Shown one piece after another: positions 9,608 through 63,216 of a stretch of DNA of 64,000 nucleotides (position 1 is its first letter; every line of letters starts with the position of its first letter). Origin of the DNA: Candidatus Saccharimonadota bacterium. Lineage in GTDB: Bacteria > Patescibacteriota > Saccharimonadia > Saccharimonadales > SZUA-47. The position numbers were made by a program, and so were the translations under genes. The stretch covers positions 257,449-321,448 of the forward strand of contig CP065013.1 in NCBI GenBank assembly GCA_016700315.1, read 5' to 3'. The notes under the pieces were generated by a model. It had not been told where the DNA came from. It was given only the letters and a program-made list of their open reading frames with translations, and made no database searches.

Positions 9608-9652
9608 CGCTGGCCTCCTATGAAGTTATTTATTAGCAGCCTAACCATCACC

Positions 9653-10836: not shown

Positions 10837-10849
10837 CATATCCCCCCTT

Positions 10850-12619: not shown

Positions 12620-12660
12620 ATTTTTGGTCTAAGCTCCTATTGGCTTTCCCTAAAGTCGGC

Positions 12661-12912
12661 TTACTGGCTAGCTTGGAAGGGTTTTGTATTATTACTTTCA
12701 CCAATTTTAATTAATTGTGTTGGATTAACTGCCTGATCGTTAAAGATACTACCGCTGACAGGTCGTTTAAACTCAGCGCTAATCACTGGTACAACCTCGA
12801 CTTTTACTTGTTTATCGGCGGGATTTCCGATTAGTAGTTTCGCCAGGAAAAACGCAGCAAAAGCACTTATCAGAGTTACGACTATAATTGTATTTCTATC
12901 CTTAGGCTTCAT
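12661..12912 (-). CDS. Small single-pass membrane protein of the pilus locus (unknown)
   Basis: One N-terminal TM helix (IIVVTLISAFAAFFLAKLLI). Lies between pilO-like and pilB. Confidence 0.5.
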   Translation of the reverse strand: MKPKDRNTIIVVTLISAFAAFFLAKLLIGNPADKQVKVEVVPVISAEFKRPVSGSIFNDQAVNPTQLIKIGESNNTKPFQASQ

Positions 12913-13013
12913 TTATCCCCTCCCCGTAGTACTAGAACTAGCTACTTTGCAACACCCAATCAAATGCCCTGCCTCAAAGGCCGCCAAGTACTGCGTACCG
13001 TGTACTGCGTACA

Positions 13014-13709
13014 TCACTTCACCACCTTAGTAGTTACGTCAAACCTAGCCTCAGGCTGGTAGTAAGTAGTTAGATCTGTATTAAGCGTCATTGAGCTATC
13101 AGAGCCAGAAAGACGCAAATTATTTACATAGAGCGGCCTGATTGATGATTCCAAAGTTTTTATAAATGCTTGGATTTTAGTGTAATCACCTGTTACCGAC
13201 AGGGGAACTTTTAGCTCTACCGGCGTTGCGCTGGCCAGTGCTGGCTGGGCTGCATTGCTTGCCGAGGAGGTAGAATTATCAGTCCCGCCCAACGCCGAAA
13301 TAGTTACTCCGCCTTGGCTCTGTACCAGTTTCTCGATGCTAGTCACAAAAGCCGGAAAATCGTATTGGCTTGGCAGCGCATCCAGCACAATTCTGCTGTT
13401 GTCGCCATCACGGGTAGCGCTACCACTTTTGCTCCCACCAAGGATATTGACATCTTCATTTGCAAACGAACCGTAGGAGCTAACCAAAGTGTCGATATTA
13501 GCCTTGTTAGTTTTCAAAGTTTTCAAGGCAGCTCGCTTTTCATTCATTACTCTTCCGTTAAATAGTGCCTGCCTCACCAGAGAACTGACGCCAAACAAGG
13601 CAAAAATAAGTGAAGCTACAGCTATCGAAGTCATTATTACGATCTTCTGATTAGCCTTATCTATCAAGGAATATTTAATGGAAAACCCTTTTTTTGAATC
13701 TCCGCCCAT
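13014..13709 (-). CDS. PilO-like pilus alignment protein (start moved to internal ATG)
   Basis: ATG at 13707-13709 lies one base after the pilN stop. Single TM then a periplasmic-type domain. Assignment rests on position after pilM-pilN. Confidence 0.55.
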   Translation of the reverse strand: MGGDSKKGFSIKYSLIDKANQKIVIMTSIAVASLIFALFGVSSLVRQALFNGRVMNEKRAALKTLKTNKANIDTLVSSYGSFANEDVNILGGSKSGSATRDGDNSRIVLDALPSQYDFPAFVTSIEKLVQSQGGVTISALGGTDNSTSSASNAAQPALASATPVELKVPLSVTGDYTKIQAFIKTLESSIRPLYVNNLRLSGSDSSMTLNTDLTTYYQPEARFDVTTKVVK

Positions 13710-13710
13710 A

Positions 13711-14376
13711 CTACTGACCCTCACTTTTGTTCTCAAATAACTGAGCCGGTTTCTCTGTCTCCGAACGAGTACTAACAATATCTGGTACCGTCAAAACTGG
13801 CTGTTTTGTAGCATCGCTCAGAACTGGTTCGTATTTTGCGCTGATCGAGAAACTGCTACTAATTCCGCCGCGTGTCAAAGTCGTAGATACCTGGCTAAAA
13901 GCCTTTGTTTCGCTGTTATCGCCGTCACTAACTTTTGCGAACTTCAGAGTATCGCTAAACCTGTTCACCACTTCCAGCGAAGGAGCAGTACCGGTAAAAG
14001 TCACGGTGTGATCAACAGCATTAAGCTCAAAACTAGCAAGCTTGACATCAGCTGGTGTTAGTTTATTTATGTATTCAAAGAACCTTGAAGAGATAGGCTT
14101 TTTGTCATGCAAGCCTGGCAATGCATTGAGTTGATTCTGGATCGTCAAGATCTTATCAAGGTCAGGGGTAGCCTGAATACTACTTTTTACACTTTTTATG
14201 TCGTTAGTCAGGTTGGCAGTCAGCTTATTTTGTCCCAGCACGAACATCAAAGCTAGTAGTGTAGCTCCGGCAGAGCCTAATATAACTAAAGTGCTAATAG
14301 TCATAATTCGGCGCTTCAACTGCCGTGCTTTGACGTACTTCAGCTTTACATCTGGCAGCAAGTTAAATTGAATCAT
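13711..14376 (-). CDS. pilN: PilN (fimbrial assembly) protein
   Basis: MIQFNLLPDVKLKYVK N-terminus (the PilM-binding NLLP motif) followed by one TM helix. Confidence 0.8.
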   Translation of the reverse strand: MIQFNLLPDVKLKYVKARQLKRRIMTISTLVILGSAGATLLALMFVLGQNKLTANLTNDIKSVKSSIQATPDLDKILTIQNQLNALPGLHDKKPISSRFFEYINKLTPADVKLASFELNAVDHTVTFTGTAPSLEVVNRFSDTLKFAKVSDGDNSETKAFSQVSTTLTRGGISSSFSISAKYEPVLSDATKQPVLTVPDIVSTRSETEKPAQLFENKSEGQ

Positions 14377-14427
14377 ACTTGAACTCCTAAGCGTATAGTC
14401 CCTAGTCCATAGTACATAGTCTTTGGC

Positions 14428-14600
14428 ATGAAAAGACTAACAGTTGAGTGCTCAGTGAGTTTTCTTGCTGAGTAGCGCAACGAGGCGTACATTTCGTACG
14501 ACGATCGAGCAACGGAAGCAAAAAACTCGCTGAGTGCCAACAGCAAATCAAAAAGCACAGCTTTGCTGGGGTTTTGGGTTTGTGATGTTAGTCTTTTCAT
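14428..14600. mobile_element. MITE-like insert between pilM and pilN bounded by 15-bp perfect inverted repeats ATGAAAAGACTAACA / TGTTAGTCTTTTCAT
   Basis: IRs read at 14428-14442 and 14586-14600. A second imperfect inner IR pairs GTTGAGTGCTCAGTGAGTTTT with AAAAACTCGCTGAGTGCCAAC. A heptamer array TAGTCCC TAGTCCA TAGTACA TAGTCTT abuts at 14394-14423. Confidence 0.6.
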
Positions 14601-15655
14601 TCGTCCCTCTCTGCTAAGCCAGCCGCAACCGAGAACTGATGCGAAACTGTCATCAATTCGTTTTGTCTCTCTTGTCCAAACAAGATATTGCGCCAGGCGT
14701 TCCCGATCTCAACCGTTACAGCAAACTTGTTGGCAATATTAAGAGGTAATTCCGGTAATGTCGAAGCCGCTCCCGTCACTATAATCCGTTCCAGTTTTGC
14801 ATCGCCATAACGAGCACTAAAGAACTTAATCGACTTCTCGATCTCACTCATCAAAATTTCGACAGAACTAGCAATAGCGTTGTGAATCTGTCCTTCTAGC
14901 TTATCTTTGCTCATTCCAAACTTATAGACGAATTGCTCAGCCTGTTTTTCGTCGATCCCTAGGTTTTGCATAGCCGCTTTTACTATCCCTGTGCTACCAA
15001 TAGGTATCGTACGCATCAGTCTCGGTACTCCGCCCAGCACAACTATAAGATCACTCGAAACATCGCCCATGTCTACCATTAGCGCCGCACCCATGGCTGT
15101 CGGGTCTAACAATGCTCTGCTAATCGCCAAGCTATCTGGCTCAAAAGCAATTACGTTCAGCCCGATCGACTCGAGCATATCCAGGCGCTTCTCTACAAAA
15201 TCATTAGCCACACTCGAAATAAGCACCTCTACCTTGCTGGCCTCTTTGGGCGAATCACCCAGTAGCGCCCAATCAATCTTGCTCTCGCTAAGAGGTGTTG
15301 GGATCAGTGAATCAGCTTGGTATTTAATAGTTTTCGCTAAATCTTCAGGGCTCAATCTGTCGATGTCGACGACCGCCGAAAAAACTTTATTGCTTGGGAT
15401 ACCAACGGCCACGTTGTTAGCACTAATCCCTACTTCGCTAATCAGCTCTCTAACAGCCATTGCCACTTTTTGCTGATCAGCTGCCGCATCGCTTTGGCTA
15501 ATCTTAGAATCTATCGCTTTAGCCCCATATTTAAACAAGGTTCTTTGTGCGCCACCCCGAAGCTGCACAACTCGAATAGAGCTAGTGCCTATATCAAGCC
15601 CAAAGAAATCACTTTGCCCACTCAAGATACCCATATTGCTTATATTGTAAAGCAT
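14597..15655 (-). CDS. pilM: PilM, actin-like pilus assembly ATPase
   Basis: FFGLDIGTSSIRVVQL phosphate-1 motif, actin/FtsA-like fold length, and position upstream of pilN. Confidence 0.88.
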   Translation of the reverse strand: MLYNISNMGILSGQSDFFGLDIGTSSIRVVQLRGGAQRTLFKYGAKAIDSKISQSDAAADQQKVAMAVRELISEVGISANNVAVGIPSNKVFSAVVDIDRLSPEDLAKTIKYQADSLIPTPLSESKIDWALLGDSPKEASKVEVLISSVANDFVEKRLDMLESIGLNVIAFEPDSLAISRALLDPTAMGAALMVDMGDVSSDLIVVLGGVPRLMRTIPIGSTGIVKAAMQNLGIDEKQAEQFVYKFGMSKDKLEGQIHNAIASSVEILMSEIEKSIKFFSARYGDAKLERIIVTGAASTLPELPLNIANKFAVTVEIGNAWRNILFGQERQNELMTVSHQFSVAAGLAERDE

Positions 15656-20173: not shown

Positions 20174-20563
20174 GGCTTTCTGCTCCTTACCTGAGACTTG
20201 GGGGGGTTTCTGCTCAGATGATTAGTTAACTTAACTTTGGTCTATCGGTGCTAGCGGGCATTTTACTGTCCCTTGCTGACTGCTTGTACCGATCTTTTTT
20301 TGGCACGTTTTGAGCGTTCGGGCTCTAAGTTTCACAGTTAGTTTACTTTTTCCAGCAGCCTTGTTTACTTACTAAACAACCAGCTACCGAAATACTGACT
20401 AACCTTAACCTTAAAGCACACCCCAACTATACCACACCCCCACCCCCGTTGTCAATAGCCCGATTCTAGCAATTAGCGGGAACGGTAACCTTTACTTATG
20501 ATCTAATGCGCCCCTCGCCTTCCATTACCTCCCACCCAACACCCCTACAGCCAACCTTCATGT

Positions 20564-20599
20564 ACGACATGTTTGCCACGATCGTGGTTTTTATGTCGT
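20564..20599. repeat. Palindromic hairpin element copy 2 (left arm variant ACGACATGTTTGCCACGA)
   Basis: The right arm is identical to copy 1. The left arm has GTTTG in place of AAAAA, giving a U-U internal loop. Preceded by a C-rich tract. Confidence 0.85.
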
Positions 20600-20785
20600 C
20601 TTTTTATACTCACACCCCTGTAATTCACAAGGTAGACCAGGCTGCTTTCACGACTGTCACTACGACTAAGGCGCAGTCAAAACGCTAACCGTTATGCATT
20701 TATCCACCATTTTGCTTATGTTTTACCCAGACTTATCCATACCCCATCCCCACCCCACCAAACACCACTACACCTCCCTTCACGT

Positions 20786-20803
20786 ACGACATGTTTGCCA
20801 CGA
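20786..20803. repeat. Half-copy of the palindromic element (left arm only), preceded by C4 runs
   Basis: ACGACATGTTTGCCACGA is identical to the left arm of copy 2 and is followed by CCAAGCG instead of the right arm. Confidence 0.75.
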
Positions 20804-20852
20804 CCAAGCGTTTTCTTGTAGGCTTCTTGGCTTTCGTATATTTTTTTGTTCG

Positions 20853-35114: not shown

Positions 35115-37331
35115 TTAGATTTCGCGTTCAAAGTCAGTTAGCGGCTCATCTTCAGGTGAAACCACGGCAGACTCATCGCCGTCAGTAGTTGCCCCGCCAA
35201 AAACATCATCGAGCGAGCTAACCAACACTTCGCGCGGCTTACTGCCATCGGCATGGCCAACAATGCCAGCTTCTTCCATCTCATCGATTAGCCTCGAGGC
35301 ACGACCATAGCCTATACGCAGTCTACGCTGTAGGAGTGAGGTTGATGCCTTACGATTTTCTATGACTACTCGCACGGCATCGCGGAACATATCATCATCA
35401 CTATCACTGTTGCCACCGCCGGCTGGCTCAGGAACTATGCCGCCTTTACCATTAAGAACAACTGGCATACTCACCACTTCGTCATCATACTGAGGTGGTC
35501 GCTGCATACGCAGAAAATCTGTCACTTTGTTGATTTCATCACCCATGATCAAAGCACCCTGAACGCGGATTGGTTTGGGCATGTCAGCTGTTACATAAAG
35601 CATATCACCAGTACCCAAAAGTTTTTCAGCCCCAACTTGGTCGAGTATTATTCTACTTTCAACCTGCCCGGCAACTGTAAAGGCAATGCGAGCCGGTACG
35701 TTAGCTTTAATTAGTCCAGTTATAACATCTACACGCGGACTCTGTGTTGCCAAAACTAAGTGAATACCAGCAGCGCGTGCTTTTTGGGCAATTCGGACAA
35801 TTAAAGCCTCAACTTCACGGCCAGCAAGCATCATGAGATCAGCCATTTCGTCTACAACGATCACGATGTAAGGCATACCAGCTTCGGCCTGCCTATCATT
35901 GTACTCAGCAATTGAGCGCGCGCCGTGCTCTTTAAACTGACGAAGACGCCTCTCCATCTCCGCAACTGCCCACTTGAGAGCGCTAATACACTTCTCGGGC
36001 TCAGTAATTACAGGTGTTAAAAGGTGTGGAATGTCGTTATAGGATGTTAGCTCAACCTGTTTTGGATCGACCAGAATAAGTTTGAGATCAGACGGAGAAT
36101 TACGATACAGCAAACTAACCAGAAGAGTATTAATCATGACCGACTTACCAGAACCAGTCTGACCAGCTATCAAAAGATGAGGCATGCGATCGAGAGAACC
36201 AACAATAGGTACCCCTGCAATATCCTTGCCAACCGCTAAACCGAGCGGCTGTTGGTTACTTTTCCAAGCGTCGCTATCGATTACGCCAGCCAGACGAACT
36301 GTCGCTGGTTTGACGTTTGGCACTTCTATGCCAACAGCTCGCTTGCCAGGAATAGGTGCTTCCATACGAATGCTGCGTGCCGCCAAATCAAGAGCTAGGT
36401 TATCATCAAGCGCAGTAATCTTTGACAGCTTAATACCTTGAGGTGGTTTGAGCGTAAACTGTGTTACACGTGGACCAACATTCACTTCCTCCATTTCTAC
36501 ATCAATACTAAAGTTACTAAGTGTGCTCTTGATAATTTCGGCGTTAGTCTCATAGTCACCAGCGTCGGCCTTGTCCTGCTTTTGATTAAGTAGATTCAAG
36601 CTTGGGAATTGCCAGTTTGGATCGCTTTTCTCTGTTAGAGCTTCGTGGTCTTCTTGCGGGGTTAGTGCAGCAGCGGCATTCTTGACCGGATTTTTTGAAA
36701 CTGAATTTCGCTCAGCTTGGCTATGATGCTCTACAGGCACACCTTCGTTTAATTTGAAGTGAGGCTCGCGTGTTTTTAGCTCATCTAAATCTGTGTCACC
36801 TTCTTGACGACGTAGGCTAAGTAATTTATCGAACAATCCACGGACCGAAACATCAAAAGTCCAACAAAATGCTAGAAACGTTAGGACAAAAAACACAATG
36901 CTCGTAGGTACCTTGTCTAAGAGTGCCAATAGTGCGTTGCCTATAGTTCTACCGACAGCCCCGCCGTAGCCACCCGCCCAAGGCAGTTCAGACGAGTCAC
37001 GGGTAGCAAACCCTGTGTGCAACCATGCGCTGGCAACGATTACAAAACTTGCCATGCTAGCAATGTTTCTGAAAGGTACAACTTTTTCTTCATGTTTGAA
37101 CTTGTGCACCGCCCAGTAAAAACACGCTAAGGGAGCAAAGTAGCCCGCTAGGCCAAAAGCATCGTAAACCCAACCAAAAAGTTTAACCGGCAATGACCCG
37201 CCAGTACCAAAGCCTCCTAGTAGCAGAAGGAGCCCCAAAACTACCAAAAAAACGCCGCGCATAACACGCCAAAACATACTTGGCTCTTTTGGAGCTTGTT
37301 TCTTGCTTGTTCGTTTTTTTCTTTTTGCCAT
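35115..37331 (-). CDS. ftsK: DNA translocase FtsK/SpoIIIE
   Basis: N-terminal TM helices, Walker A GQTGSGKSVMIN, VVDEMADLMM, and the C-terminal gamma winged helix LLQRRLRIGYGRASRLIDEMEEAGIVG. Confidence 0.93.
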   Translation of the reverse strand: MAKRKKRTSKKQAPKEPSMFWRVMRGVFLVVLGLLLLLGGFGTGGSLPVKLFGWVYDAFGLAGYFAPLACFYWAVHKFKHEEKVVPFRNIASMASFVIVASAWLHTGFATRDSSELPWAGGYGGAVGRTIGNALLALLDKVPTSIVFFVLTFLAFCWTFDVSVRGLFDKLLSLRRQEGDTDLDELKTREPHFKLNEGVPVEHHSQAERNSVSKNPVKNAAAALTPQEDHEALTEKSDPNWQFPSLNLLNQKQDKADAGDYETNAEIIKSTLSNFSIDVEMEEVNVGPRVTQFTLKPPQGIKLSKITALDDNLALDLAARSIRMEAPIPGKRAVGIEVPNVKPATVRLAGVIDSDAWKSNQQPLGLAVGKDIAGVPIVGSLDRMPHLLIAGQTGSGKSVMINTLLVSLLYRNSPSDLKLILVDPKQVELTSYNDIPHLLTPVITEPEKCISALKWAVAEMERRLRQFKEHGARSIAEYNDRQAEAGMPYIVIVVDEMADLMMLAGREVEALIVRIAQKARAAGIHLVLATQSPRVDVITGLIKANVPARIAFTVAGQVESRIILDQVGAEKLLGTGDMLYVTADMPKPIRVQGALIMGDEINKVTDFLRMQRPPQYDDEVVSMPVVLNGKGGIVPEPAGGGNSDSDDDMFRDAVRVVIENRKASTSLLQRRLRIGYGRASRLIDEMEEAGIVGHADGSKPREVLVSSLDDVFGGATTDGDESAVVSPEDEPLTDFEREI

Positions 37332-37344
37332 AGTACTTCACTTA

Positions 37345-37425
37345 CGCTTCAGAGGACAACTACGTTTTCCTCTGGTCGCTCCGGGCAAAAAGCGTCGTTT
37401 TTGCTCGGGCTACTCTTTTCCTTTT
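37345..37425 (-). repeat. Two-hairpin intergenic element, copy B (between rnj and ftsK)
   Basis: AGAGGACAAC-TAC-GTTTTCCTCT and GCAAAAA-GCGTCG-TTTTTGC followed by GGCTACTCTTTTCC. Alignable with copy A at 40735-40826. Confidence 0.75.
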
Positions 37426-37518
37426 TTAATACTGTTACAGTATACCGCTTATCTTAAATTTCAGATATACCGAATGTTGTAATAATAACAAAATTCTTAT
37501 GCTTTGTCAACTGATTGA

Positions 37519-39633
37519 TCAGTCTACTCGGGCGTCTTGGCCTAGCAGGCTGGCCCGCATTTTGGCGAAGCGCTCCTGCTGTTCGGCGGCAATTTGTTCA
37601 GGCGTTTTTGGTTCCGGCTTTGACTCGCCTACCGCATTTTCTGCTACTAGTTGCCCTGCACCGACCGTGCCATTTGCGTTCTTGACGCTACTGTTGCCAA
37701 CCACGTTGACTACCGGTATGACGATCGGGCTGCGCTGAGTCTGCTCGTACAGAAAATGTGTAACGTAATCCTTGAGCTCGGCTTTGAAACGATCTAGATC
37801 AACTCTCTTGTAGCGCTGCTGAACCGCCCGGCGAAGTTCTATTCTAAACAAATTCATCAACTCTTCCTGGCCGCGCATGTAGATGAAGCCGCGGCTAATA
37901 ATATCTGGGCTAGTAAGCAGCTGCCCCGTTTTCTTATCAATTGTTAAGATGACCGCTACAAGTCCTTCCTCGCTCAATACTAGGCGATCTTTGACCACCA
38001 CACTGTTTACGATTGCACCTGTTTGATCAACCAAAACTGTACCAACTGGCACTTCTCCGATTACCTCCATCTTGTCTCCGTTGATTGCTACAACTTGACC
38101 ATTTTCGGCATTGAGACAGTTGCTTCTCGGTACACCTAGCTCGACTGCAAGATCAATATGGCTTTTCTTGCTGCGGATTGAACCGTAGATTGGCAAGAAA
38201 AACTTAGGACGAAGCATCTGGATCATCTCGGCGTACTCGTCTCGACTTGCATGACCCGAAACATGTAGCGGTCCAACCTTATCTAACTCATGAGTCATGT
38301 GCTGAAAAACGTGAACACCCATACGCACCATGTTGTCGACCATACCGCCGATAAGTGCGTCGTTTCCGGTCTCTGGGATTGGCGTACTTGAAAGCACAAC
38401 CGTGTCTTGCTCTTTAAGCTTAATATGCTTGTGAGCGCCGCTAGCCATACGCTGCAGCGCCGAATTTGGTTCGCCTTGACTACCCGTACAAACCACTACT
38501 ACTTCGTGATCTTTCATGGTTGGGACGGCACTGATCGGCACGATTGTGCCTTTCTGAATCCTGACAAAACCGTGACGAATCGCCATTTCAAGTGTGCTAA
38601 TTAGACTGCGACCATCAAGTGCGATCTTTTTGTTGTGGTGAATCGCAGCGTTGATGATCATTTGAATACGGTTGATATTGGTAGAAAACATCGACATGAA
38701 ACAGCGTCCTGGCGCATTCTCCATAATGTCGATGAAGCTCTGCTCGATTGTCGATTCGCTAGGGGTGCGGCCCAATCGCTCAGTTGTTGTACTCTCGCTC
38801 ATAAGTAGCAGTACACCTTCGCGGCCAAGCTCGGTTAGCCTTTCCATGTCAGAGCGTTCGTGATCGAGCGGATTTGGGTCAAAACGGAAGTCGCCGGTGT
38901 TTATCACACGTCCAACCGGAGTATCTAGCACTACTACAGTACTGCCTGGAATAGAGTGAGTGATACGCACTAACTCGACAAAAAAGACTCCAACTTTTAG
39001 TTTTTCGTGGGTGTTCTCGTTCATGGGTACTACTTCGAGCTTGAAGCCTTCTGGCATAGGCAGGCCAAAGTTCTCGAAAATTTCCTGCACGCGCCCACAA
39101 GTAAATCGGCTACCATAAACTGGCGCTGGATACTTAGGAATGATGTGCGGCAAAGCCCCAATGTGATCAAGGTGCCCGTGAGTTATAACGTAGCCTTTTA
39201 TCTTGTGCTTGATAGTATCTAGATAGCTTGTATCGCAGATGCCATAGTTGATACCAGGCAGGTCAACCCCAAGGTCGTTACCCGCGTCAATGATAACCGC
39301 ATCGTTTTGGTACTCAACAAGCATCATGTTTTTGGAGCCACCACCGTCCATACCACCCAAGCCGATTACCTTCAGTCTAGGACTGTCATCTATGAAATTT
39401 GCTCGGCGTGGCTGGTTGCCATTTTGGGCCGGTGTGTCGTACAACTTTGCGATTCGGTCAGCATCTTCGTGAGCACGTTTTTGGGCTCTGATAGCTTCGC
39501 CGCGGCTTGCCGCACGAGCCTGAGGCGTCGTCCGAGGTCTAGCCTTAGCAGGCGCGTTCTGCCCCTGTTTTGGTGCTGAGTTTCTCGGGCGATTACCGCC
39601 ACCAGAACGGTTTTGTTTAAAATTGTTATTCAT
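37519..39633 (-). CDS. rnj: Ribonuclease J with basic N-terminal extension and extended C-terminus
   Basis: Metallo-beta-lactamase motif ITHGHLDHIGALP and beta-CASP region. About 90 aa of R/N/Q/G-rich N-terminal low complexity. Confidence 0.88.
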   Translation of the reverse strand: MNNNFKQNRSGGGNRPRNSAPKQGQNAPAKARPRTTPQARAASRGEAIRAQKRAHEDADRIAKLYDTPAQNGNQPRRANFIDDSPRLKVIGLGGMDGGGSKNMMLVEYQNDAVIIDAGNDLGVDLPGINYGICDTSYLDTIKHKIKGYVITHGHLDHIGALPHIIPKYPAPVYGSRFTCGRVQEIFENFGLPMPEGFKLEVVPMNENTHEKLKVGVFFVELVRITHSIPGSTVVVLDTPVGRVINTGDFRFDPNPLDHERSDMERLTELGREGVLLLMSESTTTERLGRTPSESTIEQSFIDIMENAPGRCFMSMFSTNINRIQMIINAAIHHNKKIALDGRSLISTLEMAIRHGFVRIQKGTIVPISAVPTMKDHEVVVVCTGSQGEPNSALQRMASGAHKHIKLKEQDTVVLSSTPIPETGNDALIGGMVDNMVRMGVHVFQHMTHELDKVGPLHVSGHASRDEYAEMIQMLRPKFFLPIYGSIRSKKSHIDLAVELGVPRSNCLNAENGQVVAINGDKMEVIGEVPVGTVLVDQTGAIVNSVVVKDRLVLSEEGLVAVILTIDKKTGQLLTSPDIISRGFIYMRGQEELMNLFRIELRRAVQQRYKRVDLDRFKAELKDYVTHFLYEQTQRSPIVIPVVNVVGNSSVKNANGTVGAGQLVAENAVGESKPEPKTPEQIAAEQQERFAKMRASLLGQDARVD

Positions 39634-40658: not shown

Positions 40659-40686
40659 CTGTACGCCCCTTCTATACTCTATAAAA

Positions 40687-40826
40687 TTACTTTTCTACAG
40701 CTTTCATTGACAATTTGCTGCGGCCTTTGTCGCCTTCGGCTTTTGAGGACAACCTACGGTTTTCCTCAACGCGCAGTGCAAAAAAATGTGATTTTTTGCT
40801 CTGGCTACTCTTTCCCCTTAAATACA
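40687..40826 (-). repeat. 48-bp duplicate of the pnp 3' end (40687-40734) plus ~92-nt two-hairpin element, copy A (40735-40826)
   Basis: TTACTTTTCTACAGCTTTCATTGACAATTTGCTGCGGCCTTTGTCGCC matches pnp 40827-40874 with 3 mismatches in 48. Element hairpins are GAGGACAACC-TAC-GGTTTTCCTC and GCAAAAAAA-TGTGA-TTTTTTGC. Confidence 0.88.
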
Positions 40827-42980
40827 TTACTTCTCTACAGCTTTCATTGACAATTTGCTTCGGCCTTTGTCGTCGATACCGACTAGTTTAACATCTACAA
40901 TGTCGCCAACTTTGACAACATCGCTCGGTTTCTCGACACGCTCGTTTTTCATCTCGCTGACATGTACTAAACCCTCTTGACCCTTCATAAATTCTACGAA
41001 TGCGCCGAAATCTAAGACGCTAACAACACGCGCTCCACGGTAAACTTTGCCAACTTCTGGCTCGGCTGTAAGGCTTTTGATCCACTCAAGCGCTTTTTCG
41101 ATCGCCTCAGTATTAACTGCAGCGACTGTAATCAAACCAGTGTCTTTGATGTCGATCTCAGCGCCTGTTTCTTTGGTGATTGCGTTGATTGTTTCACCAC
41201 CCTTACCAATAACAGCACCGATTTTCTCTGGGTTGATCATAATTTTCTCAATCCTTGGAGCGTGTGGGCTTAGACTAGCCCGAGGTCTGCCTAGGGTGCT
41301 TAACATGTGCCGTAAAATCTCAGCACGGCCTTCCTTGCCCTGCTCTAAAGCTTTTCGCAGAACCTCAACAGGCAAGCCGTGAACTTTCATATCCATCTGC
41401 AGAGCTGTGATACCCTTGTTGGTGCCTGCCGTTTTGAAGTCCATGTCACCTGCGAAATCTTCAGCGTCAGCAATATCACTCATGACGTAGGCATTGTCGC
41501 CGTCCATCATCAGCCCCATCGCAATACCAGACACTGGAGCTTTGAGGGGCACACCTGCATCCATAAGCGCCAGACAGCTGGAACAAGTCGCAGCCATGCT
41601 GGTACTACCGTTTTGGCTCATAATTTCTGTAACCGATCGAATAGCGTACGGAAAGTCTTCTTCGCCTGGTAGAACTGCAGTTAAGGCTCTTTCAGCGAGG
41701 TAGCCATGACCAATTTCACGACGTCCCGGACTACCAAGTCGGCGGACTTCGCCAACAGTGTATCCTGGAGCGTTATAGTGGTGCATATAACGGCGTTCAC
41801 CGTCACTTACTTCCATTGTGTCGACGATTTGGGCGTAGCTAAGCGGTGCGAGCGTTACGATGTTCATACCTTGAGTCACGCCTCGAGTAAACAAGCTCGA
41901 ACCGTGCGCTCTTGGCAAGATACCAACTTCGCTCGACAGCTGCCTAATCTCAGTTAGCTTACGGCCGTCAGGGCGAGTTTGGCTTTTTACAATACCATCA
42001 CGTACGTCTTTGTGAAGCGCCATAGTAAAGGCTTCATCGTATTCATCCCGCAGATCAGCGTAGTTCTCGCCGACTTTTTCAGCCATTTGCCCGTGAAAAT
42101 CCCAGCGAAGCTCGTTGATCATTTCGTTGCGTTCAGGGTAAGGACGGTGGAGTTTTTCGCCCAGCTTTCCTTCTACCCATGCATCAACTGCGCCCTGGAT
42201 CTCGTCATTTGGCTTGACTAGCTCGTACTCCAGCGGCTCTACACCAACTTTGGCGACTAGTTCTTTTTGAATCTTAAAGGCTGGAGCCATTTCGTTTAGA
42301 GCCCACTGCATGGCCTCTAAGACTTTTTCTTCGCTGACTTCATTAGCGCCCGCTTCTACCATCATAATGCCGCCTTCGCGGGCCGCAACTACTAGATCCA
42401 GCTCGCTAGCTTTCATCTCTGCATAGCTCATAAATGCCTTGAACTGGCCACTGTCATCTAGGCCGACTCGAAGTCCGGCAACTGGGCCGTCGAACGGTGC
42501 ACCTGTGAGCATAAATGCTGTACTCATGGCGATCATTGCCACCATGTCTGGCCTAAAGCTTGGGTCGCTGCTCAAAACACTAGCGACACCTTGTACTTCT
42601 TGTCGGTAGCCCTTGGGCCAAAGAGGTCGGATTGGTCGATCAATCAGCCGTCCGATCAAAATCGCCTCTTCACTTGGGCGACCTTCGCGCTTAATAAAGC
42701 GACTACCGCTGATTTTGCCTGTAGCGTAAAATTTTTCTTCGTAGTCGATGCTTAGCGGGAAATAGTCCATGCCGCTGATAGGTCGATTGCCAACCATGGC
42801 GGTCCCTAGCACAACCGTGTCGCCGTAGCTTACGAGAACACTTGAGGTACTCCTAAAACCAACGCGGTTGATTTCTAACTTTAGCTCTCGGCCGCAAAGC
42901 TCGGTGCTAACACTTATTATTTCTTTACCCTGGGGATTTATTGTCATTTTTTCCTTTTCCTTTTCGAAGTTTGGGCGCAA
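40827..42980 (-). CDS. pnp: Polyribonucleotide nucleotidyltransferase (PNPase)
   Basis: Two RNase PH domains plus KH and S1 domains (GKVYRGARVVSVLDFGAFVEF). The true start may be Met12 (42947). Confidence 0.94.
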   Translation of the reverse strand: MRPNFEKEKEKMTINPQGKEIISVSTELCGRELKLEINRVGFRSTSSVLVSYGDTVVLGTAMVGNRPISGMDYFPLSIDYEEKFYATGKISGSRFIKREGRPSEEAILIGRLIDRPIRPLWPKGYRQEVQGVASVLSSDPSFRPDMVAMIAMSTAFMLTGAPFDGPVAGLRVGLDDSGQFKAFMSYAEMKASELDLVVAAREGGIMMVEAGANEVSEEKVLEAMQWALNEMAPAFKIQKELVAKVGVEPLEYELVKPNDEIQGAVDAWVEGKLGEKLHRPYPERNEMINELRWDFHGQMAEKVGENYADLRDEYDEAFTMALHKDVRDGIVKSQTRPDGRKLTEIRQLSSEVGILPRAHGSSLFTRGVTQGMNIVTLAPLSYAQIVDTMEVSDGERRYMHHYNAPGYTVGEVRRLGSPGRREIGHGYLAERALTAVLPGEEDFPYAIRSVTEIMSQNGSTSMAATCSSCLALMDAGVPLKAPVSGIAMGLMMDGDNAYVMSDIADAEDFAGDMDFKTAGTNKGITALQMDMKVHGLPVEVLRKALEQGKEGRAEILRHMLSTLGRPRASLSPHAPRIEKIMINPEKIGAVIGKGGETINAITKETGAEIDIKDTGLITVAAVNTEAIEKALEWIKSLTAEPEVGKVYRGARVVSVLDFGAFVEFMKGQEGLVHVSEMKNERVEKPSDVVKVGDIVDVKLVGIDDKGRSKLSMKAVEK

Positions 42981-47676: not shown

Positions 47677-48591
47677 TTAGAAGCCAACGATTAGGGTTCT
47701 TAGTGCCTCATCAATGTCATAACTAGATGTTTTAGCGCGGTATTCAATATCTACAAGATCGGCAGCAACCGCTTTTATATCTTTAAGTGTCATGTTTCTA
47801 CTCAAACTTAGTGCCTTCTCAGCTGAATAAGGGCTTAGTCGGGCTTTGCGCGCCAGATTACTTGCCGAACTTTCGCCGCTAGTTTTGGCAAGAGCAATTT
47901 GATGAAGTTGCCAGCCTATCATACTCAAAATCGCAAAAGGTTCAACCTTTTGCGCACGCTGCTGCTCATAAAGCTCCAGGGCCTTCTTGTGCTGGCCCGA
48001 AAAAGCCGCACTCAAAAGATCAAAAATGCTGCTCTCAGGCGTTGGGTCAGTCAAAAGATGAATTGACTCCCGGTTAATATCAGTCGAATAAGTCGCCAGC
48101 TTGTCTATCTCTTGCGCTAGCAAGCTCTGATCACCACCAACCCTTTCAATCAAATATTGCGCATCGGCAGGACTCAGGCTGGCTTTGCGCTCACGGGCTT
48201 CTTCTACACACCAGCTCGCTATGTTGGCACTTTGTGCGGCCCCATGCTCGCGGAACTCAGGCCGTTTTTTCAAAGTCTTATAGTAAACCGAACGTTTGTC
48301 CAACTTACCTTCGACCAGCAAAAGGTCATTACCACCTTCTGCAGCATGTAGAACCTGCTCAACGTTATCTGCTATTTCTTTGTTTTCGCTTCCGCGGCGC
48401 AATACTACTAGTTTCTTGCTAGCCAAAAACGGCAAGCTATTGAGAGCTCCTATCACATCATTGACAGTGGTATCTTCCCCCTCGAAACGTTCTAGTGAAA
48501 GGTCACCAAACTTTTCCAAAAACCTAGCACAAACCTTGTCGGCCGCTTGTTTGATTGCCCAACCATTCTCCCCGCAAAGTATAGTAACCAT
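47677..48591 (-). CDS. holA: DNA polymerase III delta subunit
   Basis: Length and the N-terminal pattern (...LPFLASKKLVVLR...) fit HolA. C-terminal helical domain. Confidence 0.72.
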   Translation of the reverse strand: MVTILCGENGWAIKQAADKVCARFLEKFGDLSLERFEGEDTTVNDVIGALNSLPFLASKKLVVLRRGSENKEIADNVEQVLHAAEGGNDLLLVEGKLDKRSVYYKTLKKRPEFREHGAAQSANIASWCVEEARERKASLSPADAQYLIERVGGDQSLLAQEIDKLATYSTDINRESIHLLTDPTPESSIFDLLSAAFSGQHKKALELYEQQRAQKVEPFAILSMIGWQLHQIALAKTSGESSASNLARKARLSPYSAEKALSLSRNMTLKDIKAVAADLVDIEYRAKTSSYDIDEALRTLIVGF

Positions 48592-48628
48592 ACATATAGG
48601 TTATAGCTAAAACGCAGCACATAAAAGT

Positions 48629-48770
48629 GCTAGAGCTTCTCCTGGCAGCTCGGGCACAGATGTGTGCCTCGCCCAGCAGGGTTTGTTCTAGGAGGGGCAC
48701 ACCCCTCCGCTTCAAAACTGAAGTAAATTCAGTTTTTCGCCCTCCCCCTAAAGGCAGTGCTTACAGCTCT
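48629..48770 (-). repeat. ~50-bp duplicate of the mutM 3' end (48629-48678) plus ~92-nt two-hairpin element, copy C (48679-48770)
   Basis: CTGGCAGCTCGGGCACAGATGTGTGCCTCGCCCAGCA is identical in both copies (second copy at 48781-48817). The duplicate keeps frame and stop (…GRGTHLCPSCQEKL-stop versus …CQQL-stop). Hairpins are GGAGGGG-CACA-CCCCTCC and AAAACTGAA-GTAAA-TTCAGTTTT. Confidence 0.88.
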
Positions 48771-48771
48771 G

Positions 48772-49743
48772 CTAGAGTTGCTGGCAGCTCGGGCACAGAT
48801 GTGTGCCTCGCCCAGCAACTCTTGTTTTAATGATGGTGGTTTGGCAGCGTGGGCACGGGGCACCTTCTTTGCGGAAGACTCTAGCGAAATCTATGTAACT
48901 TCCCCGCTTGCCTTCAGCGTTGACATAGTTACGGTCGGTGCTGCCGCCTTTTTCGATCGACAACTTGAGTACATAAATAATTTCAGAGTGCAGCTTAGTC
49001 AGTCTGGCATTTGAGAGATCCCGGACCAAGCTTGCCGGATGAATACTAGACCCCCAAAGCGATTCGTCAGCGTAGATATTGCCCACTCCTGCCAGAACTG
49101 TTTGATCCAAAAGCGCCGCCTTAATGCTGCTATTTTTGCGCTTTTGCAGTCTTTTGATTAAGACTTTGGGCATAAAATCTTCTTCTAGCGGTTCAGGCCC
49201 AACCTTTTTCATAAAATCAATTTCGGCGACAGCAATCGTCGGCATTAACCTTACCCAGCCAAACTTACGCTGGTCATTGAAGTATAGGTGCTCGCTATCC
49301 CCAAGAAAGAAATCTACCCTTGTCGATTTATCGGGCAGGTTACCTACTAGCGAATTGTTTGGATGCCCAGCCCCAAACCGAGTCTCTGTCTCGGAAAATT
49401 CTAAATCATGAGGACCATATCCTAAATTTTTTTCTTTTTTGTTTTTATTATTTTTTAGAATTTCGGATTTAGATTTTAGGGTTTTTCTTTGTCCGACAAA
49501 GACTAGTTGCCCTGTCATTTTAAGATGAATAACAAAAGTGTAGCCAGTCGACAAATCGATCATCAAAACTTTAGCTCGGCGACGCACATCAATAATTTTG
49601 GCGCCGATTGCAAACTTACTTACCTCTGTTTCTGGGTTTGGGAAGCTTTTTGCCCAGTCGTGAGTAATTTTTGTGATCGACTTACCAACAATCAAACTAA
49701 CTAGTCCGAGTCGGACGGTTTCAACTTCAGGCAGCTCTGGCAT
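48772..49743 (-). CDS. mutM: Formamidopyrimidine-DNA glycosylase
   Basis: MPELPEVETVRLGL N-terminus, H2TH region, and C-terminal zinc finger CPRCQTTIIKTRVAGRGTHLCPSCQ. Confidence 0.9.
   Translation of the reverse strand: MPELPEVETVRLGLVSLIVGKSITKITHDWAKSFPNPETEVSKFAIGAKIIDVRRRAKVLMIDLSTGYTFVIHLKMTGQLVFVGQRKTLKSKSEILKNNKNKKEKNLGYGPHDLEFSETETRFGAGHPNNSLVGNLPDKSTRVDFFLGDSEHLYFNDQRKFGWVRLMPTIAVAEIDFMKKVGPEPLEEDFMPKVLIKRLQKRKNSSIKAALLDQTVLAGVGNIYADESLWGSSIHPASLVRDLSNARLTKLHSEIIYVLKLSIEKGGSTDRNYVNAEGKRGSYIDFARVFRKEGAPCPRCQTTIIKTRVAGRGTHLCPSCQQL
49454..49481. repeat. Intragenic heptamer array in mutM: TTTAGAA TTTCGGA TTTAGAT TTTAGGG
   Basis: Read directly. Same unit family as the intergenic array at 3233-3260. 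Translated as KTLKSKSEILK. Confidence 0.88.
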
Positions 49744-55039: not shown

Positions 55040-55073
55040 GAAGGAAAGGGTGGGCTTCTCTAAGCCTTCTGGA

Positions 55074-55514
55074 TCAACTGTTCAAACCGCTATCACTGTC
55101 TTGACTATGTTTGCCAGTTCCTACAACATATAAATTCTTTGCGGCCTCATAGCCTGTGGCACCGTGTCTACCAGTTACGGGTGAGGTCGGCTTAATGTCT
55201 GTTGCTCCATTACGAGCTGCTTCGCCACTGAGAGAGCCAGGTTTTGCGACTGGCGCACTATTTCTACCTTTGTTTGGATCATCAACATAGGACATAGTGG
55301 TGGGCTTTTTCCCTAAGCCTTCTGGATCAACTGTTCGGAAAATAGGAGGTTCTCCGGAGCTATCACTGTCTTGACTATGTTTGCCAGTTCCTACAACACT
55401 TCTAGCCTTTTGGGCTGCTAATCTAGCAGTTTGGTTAATTCTCAATACTGTTGGGTCGTCCACTTTGGCTCCTTTGTTTGTTTTGTTACTTTTGTGCTTT
55501 ACTTTGTGTTTCAT
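55074..55514 (-). CDS. Basic low-complexity protein with internal repeat VVGTGKHSQDSDS...TVDPEGL
   Basis: ORF containing two copies of an ~80-100-nt module (55299-55398 and 55049-55128). Confidence 0.5.
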   Translation of the reverse strand: MKHKVKHKSNKTNKGAKVDDPTVLRINQTARLAAQKARSVVGTGKHSQDSDSSGEPPIFRTVDPEGLGKKPTTMSYVDDPNKGRNSAPVAKPGSLSGEAARNGATDIKPTSPVTGRHGATGYEAAKNLYVVGTGKHSQDSDSGLNS

Positions 55515-55519
55515 TTTTA

Positions 55520-56584
55520 TTACCTCACCACATTTCTACGTACTGGGCTAACAGGTAGCGGCGAGTCGTTTTTGCCAAAAATTGCATTTTTAGAATGTTT
55601 GTCGTAGGCGGCAGCCTTAGTGACCCATTGTTCAAAGGCTTTCTTTTTCACTGGGTCCGCGTTGATTTCTTTGAGTTTGTTTTCATTGTTAGTCGCACCT
55701 TTTACCCATGTTTCAAAGGCCTTCTTTTTGGCTGGATCCGCGCTAATTTCTTTGAGTTTTTGTGCTTGCGCAGCTGACAATGTAGAAGATTTGAAGTTCT
55801 TCATGCTTTGGCTTTCAGAGCCGCGCTGAGTCAGCGCCGAATGGTTCTCGACCATCATCTTGTTCCAGGCTTTTTGCTGATCTGGCGTTAACTTGCCATA
55901 GGCATTAGCAAATTTATCTAAGTCATTTCCAGTAATTTTCTTGTCTTTGCCATTAGCGTCTTTAATAATAATTGTTTTATTAGCGCCCGGCGCTCCGGGG
56001 TGTTGGCCCTGTCCAATTGTAGTTGACCCAGATCCGCCACTTTTGTTTGCTTCTATCCATTTATCTCTTTGTTCGGGTGTTAGCTTGTTGAGCGTTGCGG
56101 CAAACTTGGCTACGTCACTTTTGTTCAAAGTCTGACTGTTAACCGTGATTTTGTCGTCTTTGGGAGGTACTTGACCACCGTTTTTGGCCATGGCTTCGAA
56201 GTCTTTCCACCTCTGGCTGGGCTGATTGTGATGAGCCATCGCCCAAGAGCTGTCGGCGGCAATACGACTCATTTTTTGGAAGGCTTCCCACTCTGCATCA
56301 CCCCAGTACTTAGTGTCTTTGTTGAACTGAGCGATCTGCTCTTTACTGTGACCTCCCGGATGCTGACCTGGTGCAAACTTCAGTTCGCGGTTCGGCTGGC
56401 GAAGGTTCCAACTATCTGCCGATTTAAGTCCCGTACCGCTAATGTGCGTGTCACCACTTGGGGCTGGTTTATTGTCCATAGGCTTTGTTAGCTTGAGACC
56501 GCTTTTAGCACTAAGCATAATTGCAGCCGAGCCAGCTGCCGAGTTCATAAATTGATTTGTAGTTGAATTTCGACGTTTTGTCAT
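55520..56584 (-). CDS. K/G/P/N-rich hypothetical protein (354 aa) with helical repeats
   Basis: Repeats KFAATLNKLTPEQRDKWIE / KFANAYGKLTPDQQKAWNK and ADPAKKKAFETWV / ADPVKKKAFEQWV. No signal peptide. Confidence 0.6.
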   Translation of the reverse strand: MTKRRNSTTNQFMNSAAGSAAIMLSAKSGLKLTKPMDNKPAPSGDTHISGTGLKSADSWNLRQPNRELKFAPGQHPGGHSKEQIAQFNKDTKYWGDAEWEAFQKMSRIAADSSWAMAHHNQPSQRWKDFEAMAKNGGQVPPKDDKITVNSQTLNKSDVAKFAATLNKLTPEQRDKWIEANKSGGSGSTTIGQGQHPGAPGANKTIIIKDANGKDKKITGNDLDKFANAYGKLTPDQQKAWNKMMVENHSALTQRGSESQSMKNFKSSTLSAAQAQKLKEISADPAKKKAFETWVKGATNNENKLKEINADPVKKKAFEQWVTKAAAYDKHSKNAIFGKNDSPLPVSPVRRNVVR

Positions 56585-61146: not shown

Positions 61147-63216
61147 ATGATCAAAGTCTTTGAACTAGTTGTCAGTAAATCACAGGTGACAAAAGAAGAT
61201 TTTTTTGAATTATATAATACTCTTACAGCTCATCTCGGTACATTCTCGAGCGTTAAATTCCACATTTTAATGCGGGAAAATCACTTTAGGTATTTTGTTG
61301 AAAGCGATAGAGATCTTAGTTCAATATCTGGGAGTGTGCACTTTTGTGTTCTACGAGAAGTCCAAGAAAAAGAAATAGAATTGCCAAAACACGTCTCCAG
61401 AGAGAGGTTCGTAAATTTTGTGACAAGTGGATCACTGACAACGTTAAAAGAAAAAATGTCCTTAAGACGAGGCAAGATGCTTGAACATTTCGTTTGCCAG
61501 GTGACGAGGGTAAATTTTGAGTATGCTCACGTAAAAATGCTGCTCTACTTCAAAAACGCTAAAGGCGATTACTCACTTGCAAAAAAGATAACCAACAAAT
61601 TCCCCGCCCACTTATTCGCAATGGATTTTGAAGTTTCCAATAACTTTATGCGAACCGAGACCCCGAAGTATCTTAATATTGAAAAGGCTCTACATATAAT
61701 TAACTCCGAAAATATGAACGCAATCTTGGAGGTAGACACGTTCCCATATTTTCCTCAGCCATATTACTTAGCACTCCCTACGTACGAATTTGATAAGCAT
61801 TCAATGATTGTTGGAGCTTCGGGAAGTGGCAAATCAAAGTTCATTGAATTGTTTATAGATAGACTAAGTCGAATGCCGAATAGGTTCAATTATCGTGTTG
61901 TAGTTATTGACCCGCATGCCAACTTAGCTGAAGACTTGAAGCATATAGACTCGTCAAAAATCATTGACTTTAAAGCCGAAAACACAGAACTTTTTGCTGG
62001 GGCAGAAGCCGACACAACTGCTGCTACTGAACTAACGTCGACTCTGATGAAGTCACTAATGGGAGATAGTTTTAACCCTAGAGTAGAAAGAGTAATGCGT
62101 TTTACGCTATACGTGTTGTTTACTGCAAAATCTATGTCATTAAGCATGTTGAAGCGTTTTTTGACAGACGTAGAAGTACGACAGCAAGTGCTAGATCATG
62201 TTCAGGGGCACGTTCCGCATAATATCAGCCACTTCTTTGCTACTGACTACAACGAAATCCGCACCGCATTTTATAACGAAGGCATTCTTCCGATTATCGC
62301 AATCGTCGACGAACTCGAGCTACAACCTGCTCTAATGGCCGAGGGAGGGCTTTCAATACAAAGCACCATTAGAGATAGCTTTTTGACCGTTTTTTCGTTA
62401 AACAAGGTTAGCATGGGCGAAAAGGTCGTCAAGACAATTGCGGGCCTACTAATTCAGCAGATATTCCTACTTGCACAGTCCAGAGCCTTTAACGAAAAAG
62501 TCCTACTTTTCATCGACGAAGTGTCGGTAGTTCAGAACCCCGCCCTGTCGGCAATCTTGAGTGAAGCCAGGAAGTTTAACCTTTTTGTAATTCTTACTCA
62601 GCAATACTTTGCTCAAGTCGATAAGAGCCTACGAGATTCAATATTCGCAAACGTATCAAACTACTATTGCTTTAGAGTCGCAGAAGAAGATGCCATCCAA
62701 CTAGTTGGTAATTTACCAATGGAGCTGCCCAATGAAACTCTAGTTGAGGCGAAAGAAAAAGGGATCAAAGAAGAAACAATAAAGATACGACATTTGACAG
62801 ATTTACACCCAAGAGAATGCATAGTCCGTATTGCGAGTAATGGCATGCTACTCCCCTGCTTCAAAGCTAAGACTCTGGATACGCGGCAGCACGTAATAGA
62901 GACCAGCGTTACAAAGGACTATAAACCTCAAATGTATGAAGGGCCAGTAATTTCAATCGACAACTTTTTCGCAAAGGCGGAAGCCGCAATTGAGGGCGCT
63001 AAATTAGATTCGTCTGACTATGCTGGTATCATACGCGACTTAGAGCCTTTTGTCCTGAAAGACAGTAGCAGCTCTTCAAGTCATCTTAGTATACAAAATG
63101 AACCACCTCCAGACAGGAAACCGCCAGACTTACGGCCAAATCCTGCACAGGAGAGGCCTGTCAGTTTGGATGCAATCATGAACGAGCAATCAACAAAAGA
63201 AAATGGAAAGGAGTAA
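61147..63216 (+). CDS. HerA/FtsK-superfamily ATPase (DUF87-like)
   Basis: Walker A VGASGSGKSKF followed by VVVIDPHANLAEDL (the DPHGEY-type motif of HerA/DUF87), Walker B LLFIDEVSVV and ILTQQ. A ~220-aa N-terminal domain and no TM helices. Confidence 0.65.
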   Translation: MIKVFELVVSKSQVTKEDFFELYNTLTAHLGTFSSVKFHILMRENHFRYFVESDRDLSSISGSVHFCVLREVQEKEIELPKHVSRERFVNFVTSGSLTTLKEKMSLRRGKMLEHFVCQVTRVNFEYAHVKMLLYFKNAKGDYSLAKKITNKFPAHLFAMDFEVSNNFMRTETPKYLNIEKALHIINSENMNAILEVDTFPYFPQPYYLALPTYEFDKHSMIVGASGSGKSKFIELFIDRLSRMPNRFNYRVVVIDPHANLAEDLKHIDSSKIIDFKAENTELFAGAEADTTAATELTSTLMKSLMGDSFNPRVERVMRFTLYVLFTAKSMSLSMLKRFLTDVEVRQQVLDHVQGHVPHNISHFFATDYNEIRTAFYNEGILPIIAIVDELELQPALMAEGGLSIQSTIRDSFLTVFSLNKVSMGEKVVKTIAGLLIQQIFLLAQSRAFNEKVLLFIDEVSVVQNPALSAILSEARKFNLFVILTQQYFAQVDKSLRDSIFANVSNYYCFRVAEEDAIQLVGNLPMELPNETLVEAKEKGIKEETIKIRHLTDLHPRECIVRIASNGMLLPCFKAKTLDTRQHVIETSVTKDYKPQMYEGPVISIDNFFAKAEAAIEGAKLDSSDYAGIIRDLEPFVLKDSSSSSSHLSIQNEPPPDRKPPDLRPNPAQERPVSLDAIMNEQSTKENGKE

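Follow-up and report, generated by a model that had tools for sequence, protein, structure and literature searches.

How did the 3' end of one gene come to stand twice, on either side of a short hairpin-forming spacer? This question is raised by the mutM (Fpg) locus in a 64,000-nucleotide stretch of contig CP065013.1 (positions 257,449 to 321,448 of the forward strand, assembly GCA_016700315.1, Candidatus Saccharimonadota bacterium), referred to as the window. A preliminary description had drawn attention to this tail-spacer-tail structure and to a similar one at pnp, and had argued from their likeness for a specific mechanism. Our analysis led us to a reading of the mutM locus that we hold with about even confidence. 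The locus would be a gene-tail replacement module that now evolves by ordinary homologous recombination: a functional tail (T1, 45 nt) and a structured spacer (X, about 93 nt) stand before the original tail of the gene (T2), which they have displaced.

All parts of the locus lie on the minus strand. The mutM coding sequence, as taken from the list of open reading frames (ORFs), spans 48772..49743, and its homologues carry the Pfam domains Fapy_DNA_glyco, H2TH, and zf-FPG_IleRS; those homologues that have a named source come from Saccharibacteria, as do the assemblies containing related loci. Read along the gene strand, T1 (48772..48829) is followed by X (48679..48771), T2 (48630..48690), a small terminator-like hairpin, and, 41 nt further on, holA (47677..48591), which encodes the DNA polymerase III delta subunit and neighbours mutM in most related species. 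A repeat search bore out the 37-nt core that had been described, 100% identical at 48642-48678 in T2 and 48781-48817 in T1, while the duplication as a whole, put earlier at about 50 bp, covered 49 nt at 90% identity (48642-48690 / 48781-48829), the two copies starting 139 nt apart. The gene itself ends in the upstream copy, T1, which reads ...AGRGTHLCPSCQQL-stop (the tail is also written ...KTRVAGRGTHLCPSCQQL-stop); its 45 nt comprise 14 codons and the stop codon, from the Ala codon of AGRGTH at 48816 down to 48772. T2 reads AGRGTHLCPSCQEKL-stop, with its stop codon at 48630-48632, one base inside the start coordinate of the preliminary description. The duplication had been said to preserve frame and stop. 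T2 does have an intact frame and stop of its own, but since 139 equals 46 × 3 + 1 it lies in the +1 frame with respect to mutM.

No in-frame or conserved start codon for T2 was found in the window or in the related locus L102, where the frame offset is +2 (spacing 137 nt). Translation of T2 by recoding or as an ORF of its own was rejected on the grounds of these offsets and the lack of a conserved start, and T2, as judged from its reading frames, is not translated in any obvious way. The hairpin that follows it (TAGCACTTTTATGTGCTG, then CGTTTT; 48615..48632) overlaps the T2 stop codon, was flagged by a terminator scan, and is probably the original mutM 3' hairpin. T1 is enclosed, together with its stop codon, by a perfect 11-nt inverted repeat (AGAGTTGCTGG/CCAGCAACTCT) that appeared both in the repeat search and in the fold; the arms of this repeat covary in L102 (AGAGTGGCTG/CAGCCACTCT), altering the protein tail from QQL to QPL, and are also present in L107. 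The tail-spacer-tail region folded better than 200 of 200 shuffled sequences (z = -4.8). Direct repeats of 25 nt or more within 400 nt form only six families in the 64-kb window, and a scan of 1.5 Mb of retrieved loci gave no comparable case outside the window's species. The mutM structure was present in eight independent assemblies of that species (L001-L008), indicating that it is no assembly artefact.

The two hairpins reported after the mutM stop codon were both located, by inspection of the sequence and a hairpin search, within a spacer of 93 nt (93-94 by the count used). In gene-strand order, X comprises a short hairpin region close to the stop codon, a purine-rich box (TTTAGGGGGAGGG, complement CCCTCCCCCTAAA; 48740-48752), hairpin A (AAAACTGAA-N5-TTCAGTTTT; 48714-48736), hairpin B (GGAGGGG-N4-CCCCTCC; 48691-48708), and an A-rich 13-nt linker. 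No terminal inverted repeats were detected at its ends. We summarized the spacer in a sequence descriptor (TTTAGGGGGAGG, 20-60 nt, then GGAGGGG-N4-CCCCTCC), and no second copy of the spacer was found in the DNA examined.

The module was also found in L102/L103 (GCA_030154785.1), whose MutM is 69% identical to that of the window by BLASTP and 77% identical over the aligned positions. The L102 mutM gene ends in ...AGRGTHICEICQPL-stop and is followed by a 92-nt spacer and then by a second tail, AGRGTHLCPKCQTLSR-stop. The L102 spacer contains CTTTAGGGGGAGG, an A/T-rich hairpin that differs in sequence from that of the window, and GGAGGGG-caag-CCCCTCC, so that the blocks conserved between the window and L102/L103 are CTTTAGGGGGAGG and GGAGGGG-N4-CCCCTCCT-GAA. 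Local alignment of the window and L102 spacers scored 37, compared with 13.4 ± 2.2 for shuffled sequences (none of 5000 scored as high), and the L102 region again folded into a chain of five hairpins (z = -6.2). The geometry was likewise retained, with the same junction codon (Ala of AGRGTH), a functional tail of 45 nt, and a period of 137 nt. X itself appears to be under selection, because the two blocks and the hairpins have persisted in lineages between which synonymous (neutral) sites are saturated. Its probable role is that of a structured RNA lying between mutM and the gene that follows, acting as a 3'-end, processing, or stability element; its Shine-Dalgarno-like boxes, one of which is sequestered by an anti-Shine-Dalgarno-like arm, fit the RNA role proposed here.

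Comparison with other lineages bore on which of the two tails is native. In twelve other Saccharibacteria species, holA usually lies 0-60 nt after mutM and often overlaps it, and neither the spacer nor a second mutM tail was found in any of the twelve; in L014 and L020, unrelated sequence follows mutM. In the closer lineages L101, L104, L106, L107, and L108, mutM is directly followed by holA or by a single inserted gene, with no spacer and no second tail, and T2 occupies the position of the gene end in species without the spacer. The corresponding pnp loci were equally simple: in five further species pnp is followed within 3-20 nt by a gene for a 62-aa small membrane protein, and in L102 the called pnp and the following gene are 3 nt apart. 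T2 therefore stands at the original gene end, and T1 and the spacer are the added material.

L102 and its sister lineage L106 were informative in this respect. They share a convergent otsAB-like gene between mutM and holA, and this gene shows 67% amino-acid identity between the two, compared with 77-82% for the flanking genes; it is as diverged as its neighbours, and the shared arrangement is therefore old. L106 has no spacer, and its real mutM tail abuts the end of otsAB exactly as T2 does in L102. The L102 T2 encodes the perfect consensus AGRGTHLCPKCQ; set against six functional tails, it shows 7-9 synonymous but only 0-3 nonsynonymous codon differences. These comparisons showed T2 to be the displaced native tail, undecayed in L102. 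An undecayed T2 implies either that T1 and the spacer entered the L102 lineage recently or that T2 is under some constraint. Import of a passenger tail into L102 together with otsAB was rejected, otsAB being as diverged as its neighbours, and no mosaic signal was detected along the L102 MutM. MutM ends of the QQL or QKL type were discarded as markers of the module, as L104 and L108 proved to be simple loci.

We also observed that the mutM-holA junction is a hot spot for variable cargo. It holds no cargo in the window, L107, and L108, a gene of 462 or 464 aa in L007 and L101, a 342-aa gene in L104, and the convergent trehalose-phosphate synthase/phosphatase (otsAB-like) gene in L102 and L106.

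Variation among strains of the window's species pointed to continuing recombination between the tails. L002 contains 2.3 perfect 139-nt tandem units (100% matches), and its middle copy is a hybrid, flanked on the left as T2 is and on the right as T1 is, the product expected of unequal crossing-over. The locus has the properties of a tandem repeat (minisatellite), i.e., head-to-tail units, a unit number that varies between strains, and a hybrid junction copy. L006 also looks expanded, although across a scaffold gap. Gaps (runs of N) were observed in L006 at 4321-4420 and from 8612 onward, flanked by repeated sequence, and the extra mutM unit there should therefore be treated with caution. The identity of the T1 and T2 cores is consistent with gene conversion, and the change in unit number between strains is consistent with unequal crossing-over.

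In three other strains the T2 core marked a sharp boundary. Up to the final base of the T2 core, L007 and L008 matched the window at 97-99% identity; past this point identity was 56-68% across a 462-aa gene and ~425 nt at the start of holA, after which the sequences were again near-identical (import segments at L007 5795-7717 and L008 3172-5094). L004 diverges at the same point (from 4106), and its contig ends inside the inserted gene. The 462-aa gene gave weak phosphoribosyltransferase-like matches in PADLOC. In L004, L007, and L008, T2 ends in QKH-stop, and L101 has the same arrangement and a QKH-stop tail; on the evidence of this shared arrangement, the foreign DNA in the three strains is an import from a diverged, L101-like lineage. 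The breakpoint falls exactly at the T2 core, and T2 thus acts as a homology patch for foreign DNA. No third tail copy was found beyond the cargo genes. These observations also decided what became of the earlier suggestion that the variant tail of T2 had been imported with the element. The QEKL end on which it was based was absent among the best 120 MutM homologues, but the QKH-stop ends did arrive with L101-like DNA, and, in a modified form of the same idea, the displaced copy of L102 corresponds to the real mutM end of L106.

The analogous structure at pnp, also on the minus strand, was found as described, with a 47-nt repeat of 96% identity (40686-40732 / 40826-40872) and a period of 140 nt. 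The functional PNPase tail, DKGRSKLSMKAVEK-stop (T1, 40827..40872), comprises 14 codons and the stop codon (45 nt), as at mutM; it is followed by the spacer (40734..40821) and by a displaced copy of the PNPase tail (T2, 40686..40732), 96% identical to T1. The agreement in insert length and geometry between the two genes proved closer than had been claimed: the tails are 45 nt at both, and the spacers are 94 nt at mutM and 95 nt at pnp. The order of features was also confirmed to be common to both spacers, namely a purine-rich box, a hairpin flanked by an A run and a T run, and a GAGG..CCTC hairpin. Perfect hairpins of the latter type occur only three times in the 64 kb, in the mutM spacer, the pnp spacer, and the leader of ftsK. 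The pnp T2 is decaying, with a nonsense change (TTG to TAG) within its frame in L006 and a missense change in L005, and single-nucleotide polymorphisms have been exchanged between the pnp T1 and T2 among strains.

A 46-aa ORF (40687-40827, minus strand) was noticed at pnp, the ATG of which overlaps the pnp stop codon (TAATG) and which crosses the spacer into the frame of the pnp T2. The gene calls of L005 include it, whereas in L006 only 38 aa of it are left. An ORF translationally coupled through the spacer was considered as a candidate and rejected, being broken in L006 and absent at mutM; the 46-aa ORF is probably not a real gene.

That both spacers are the same element was not supported at the sequence level. 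The pnp spacer belongs to a dispersed two-hairpin family, here called R1. A short BLAST search showed that part of it recurs at 37398-37418, within an 85-nt element before ftsK (37342..37426, minus strand) that sits behind a strong promoter-like site (37510-37482); the two copies are ~85% identical, and their differences in hairpin 2 are compensatory. When metagenomes were scanned with a 20-base motif, eight true members came out (seven new ones and L092, which is the ftsK-leader locus of the window's own species), along with three chance matches in high-GC DNA. In the covariance model built from nine members, 92.8% of cells were paired and eight pairs had changes on both sides, and the covariation score was 0.281, compared with 0.125 in shuffles (0/500) and at most 0.066 in slid controls. 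The model gave 83-84 bits on the two window copies (pnp spacer, 82.9 bits, E = 1.4e-20; ftsK leader, 84.3 bits, E = 5.8e-21). In contrast, the mutM spacers of the window and L102 gave no match at E <= 10 with filters off, and local alignment of the mutM spacer with R1 members remained at chance level (p = 0.2-0.8). On these two results, the mutM spacer was rejected as a detectable member of R1.

The R1 element is ~88 nt long, intergenic, conserved across species, and found in either orientation relative to the neighbouring genes. Members lie directly before tRNA-Leu (L090), 10 nt before rpsJ (L091), and at convergent gene ends (L094-L096), and several copies are placed ~10 nt before start codons or a tRNA. 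The model also detected a truncated copy in the distant species L016, in the position that corresponds to the ftsK-leader copy, behind RNase J and a similar promoter-like site, in a locus that stops before the next gene. No flanking duplication was found in seven other members or in the ftsK-leader copy (flank test p = 1.0), and duplication is therefore not a general insertion signature of R1; extended homology of the ftsK-leader flanks to the pnp tail or the next gene was considered and found not significant. At the Rfam gathering thresholds the window matched only a tRNA, and a permissive Rfam search (E <= 10), which covered the ftsK-leader region (37250-37560) and neither the mutM nor the pnp spacer, gave a chance-level match to atoC (E = 8.4).

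R1 resembles the repetitive extragenic palindromic (REP) sequences and bacterial interspersed mosaic elements of enterobacteria, the BOX and RUP elements of pneumococci, and the Correia elements of Neisseria in being short, hairpin-forming, multi-copy, and intergenic. As in REP sequences, GTAG stands directly 5' of hairpin 1 of R1, which is not the case in the mutM spacer, and no REP-associated tyrosine transposase (RAYT) was found among the ORFs of the window that were scanned. R1 differs from such dispersed repeats in that no terminal inverted repeats, short fixed target duplication, or transposase were seen, and the copies ~10 nt before starts or a tRNA resemble a leader element; the mutM spacer, unlike these repeats, is single-copy in the DNA examined and is not a detectable member of the family. 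R1 has good covariation support, is a previously undescribed conserved family, and is a candidate for a new cis-acting RNA or dispersed repeat of Saccharibacteria. Neither spacer is a canonical terminator. Taken together, the features of the two spacers suggest a role at the RNA level, which may lie in transcript-end formation, processing, stability, or ribosome binding.

How, then, did the structures arise? In the scenario to which we assign about an even chance as a whole, one insertion-duplication would have occurred at mutM at a Val|Ala codon boundary, 45 nt before the stop codon, in an ancestor or donor lineage. Illegitimate or one-sided recombination, or a replication template switch, would be its likeliest cause, dedicated transposition being less likely. 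Homologous recombination now acts on the two tails, as reflected in their identical cores, in the changes in unit number, and in the use of the T2 core as a crossover site for DNA of diverged lineages, and the whole module can pass between lineages by inheritance or exchange. As part of the same scenario, the pnp structure would be an independent, younger event of the same kind with a spacer from a different, dispersed family. A one-off insertion-duplication is favoured because no machinery and no terminal inverted repeats were found and because tandem duplication followed by decay is unsupported. Of the 51 long ORFs in the window, 45 were scanned with Pfam, and these included no transposase, reverse transcriptase, RAYT, or cas genes, and scans of viral contigs for either spacer returned nothing real. 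An Xer-like tyrosine recombinase (Phage_integrase and SAM_1 domains; 2176-3102, plus strand) was observed near tRNA-Arg(CCT) (229-303, plus strand). No other recombinase was found in the window, and this one lies 46 kb from the repeats with no link to them.

Illegitimate recombination and template switching, of the type of microhomology-mediated break-induced replication or fork stalling and template switching, leave an inserted segment flanked by duplicated target and no transposon signatures, and such events are expected to have arbitrary lengths. Homology-facilitated illegitimate recombination has a counterpart at the mutM locus, where recombination with 30-40% diverged DNA was directly seen. 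The loci depart from such events in that mutM and pnp share 45 + ~93 nt and in that the junction microhomologies, at best 2-6 nt, are not statistically supported. The structure is best filed among recombination-generated repeats around structured intergenic elements. In the literature on Saccharibacteria repeats, long target duplications, and templated insertions, we found no description of a tail-spacer-tail structure.

Several observations weigh against this scenario. A 45-nt tail and a ~93-nt spacer at two unrelated genes are not predicted by one-off events and hint at a measuring mechanism. The coding-type conservation of the L102 T2 requires a recent gain of T1 and X, which would mean that the module moves. 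A mutM gene with X and without T2, the plausible donor state, was found in no lineage examined. No contracted allele was sampled in the nine close protein clusters, since all nine of these MutM clusters end in QQL, though unequal crossing-over should yield such alleles. Finally, X is not a canonical intrinsic terminator, and the one hairpin flagged by the terminator scan was that following T2; hairpin B lacks a U tract, and hairpin A has a 5-bp, A/T-rich core with the U run within its stem.

The shared geometry, the GAGG..CCTC hairpins, and the Shine-Dalgarno-like boxes at both spacers led us to keep a dedicated cassette mechanism under consideration. Here a non-autonomous element of ~140 nt, made up of a 45-nt surrogate tail and a ~93-nt two-hairpin part, would integrate specifically 45 nt before a stop codon and spread horizontally; one route may be an excised circle integrating via its tail sequence with a recombinase supplied in trans. 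We regard this as unlikely. In its favour, the same geometry recurs at mutM, L102 mutM, and pnp (tail 45 nt; spacers 94, 92, and 95 nt; periods 139, 137, and 140 nt), the junction codon is identical in two lineages, a rare architecture is common to both spacers, the L102 T2 looks recently displaced, and the tandem units of L002 could give excisable circles. Against it, no homology is detectable between the mutM and pnp spacers, duplications are missing from the other pnp-type members tested, the mutM spacer lacks a second copy in the DNA examined, neither locus has an associated recombinase or transposase, and L107 has T1-type tails without any spacer. The divergence between the two mutM cassettes, moreover, roughly equals that of their hosts, in keeping with inheritance or with spread by ordinary homologous recombination. 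The terminal inverted repeats and short fixed-length target duplication of miniature inverted-repeat transposable elements were not found at mutM, where the duplication is 45-49 nt; copies at unrelated sites were found for R1 and, in the DNA examined, not for the mutM spacer. The broader proposition that Saccharibacteria harbour ~140-nt tail-replacing cassettes with Shine-Dalgarno/anti-Shine-Dalgarno-like hairpins, which would integrate 45 nt before stop codons, displace the native tail harmlessly, amplify in tandem, and spread between lineages, is likewise unlikely.

An integrative element in the mutM 3' end might instead have left its attL and attR sites behind after an internal deletion that spared ~93 nt. 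This origin is improbable in our judgement, despite a resemblance to elements that integrate into gene 3' ends: the repeat is made up of the 3' end of the gene itself, the copy on the insert side is the functional one and restores the reading frame, the native tail lies downstream, the gene is intact, and the mutM-holA junction holds different cargo genes by lineage. This cargo, however, lies after T2 and outside the repeat pair in other strains, not between T1 and T2, and no third tail stands at its far side. The mutM insert is ~93 nt of non-coding DNA without an integrase and has undergone tandem amplification in one strain, and the identical cores of 37-47 nt are far above typical crossover cores. 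A random deletion remnant would not be expected to show the same length and conserved blocks in two lineages, and at pnp the spacer is no remnant but a complete member of a dispersed family.

A plain tandem duplication of ~140 nt over the gene boundary (tail, intergenic sequence, and 5' end of the next gene), the middle of which decayed into the spacer, has a very low probability. The head-to-tail geometry agrees with it, as do weak resemblances after the stop codons (TAGCA...TTTAG at mutM, GTAT..AAGGGG at pnp), but the similarity of the spacer to the sequence downstream of T2 was not significant at either mutM (p = 0.37) or pnp (p = 0.13). In addition, the pnp spacer belongs to a family present at unrelated loci, and decay would not spare the T2 core completely while making its neighbour unrecognizable. 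The comparison of spacers with downstream sequence and the match to the R1 model largely refuted this explanation. A variable/template repeat pair of a diversity-generating retroelement, or off-target integration like that of clustered regularly interspaced short palindromic repeats, has next to no probability: a gene 3' end is indeed repeated ~100 nt downstream and the core holds a small palindrome, but it was refuted by the identical cores, by flank differences that are not adenine-specific (in L102, synonymous third-position changes of all kinds), and by the lack of reverse transcriptase and cas genes in the ORFs scanned, besides which the 'spacers' are identical in the expanded L002 allele and the target is a housekeeping zinc finger, not a ligand-binding variable protein.

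If the conservative reading, a one-off insertion-duplication followed by homologous recombination, holds, the mutM locus would illustrate cleanly, in nature, how a tiny genome prone to recombination can rebuild a gene boundary and still keep the gene, the leftover gene tail serving as a landing pad for foreign DNA and as the seed of a minisatellite. If, on the other hand, the shared geometry of 45 + ~93 nt reflects a mechanism, the structures would represent a new type of miniature mobile element, one that brings a spare gene end with it and in this way protects its target. R1, with its copies before ftsK, rpsJ, and a tRNA, would provide a candidate new cis-acting RNA in a phylum for which almost nothing is known of gene regulation.

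Some further features of the window were recorded. Two tandem paralogous mini-ORFs (20480-20830, minus strand; repeat 20555-20592 / 20777-20814) encode short glycine-rich peptides, e.g., MSYVKGGVVVFGGVGMGYG, downstream of a PfkB-like kinase gene. Direct repeats also occur inside small proteins of unknown function at 55053-55415 and 55623-55759 (minus strand), with spacings of 253-270 nt and 81 nt. A type IV pilus cluster (3321-15655, minus strand) comprises PilM, two T2SSE ATPases, T2SSF, a prepilin peptidase, and pilins, and a TrwB/VirD4-like coupling ATPase is encoded at 61147-63216 on the plus strand.

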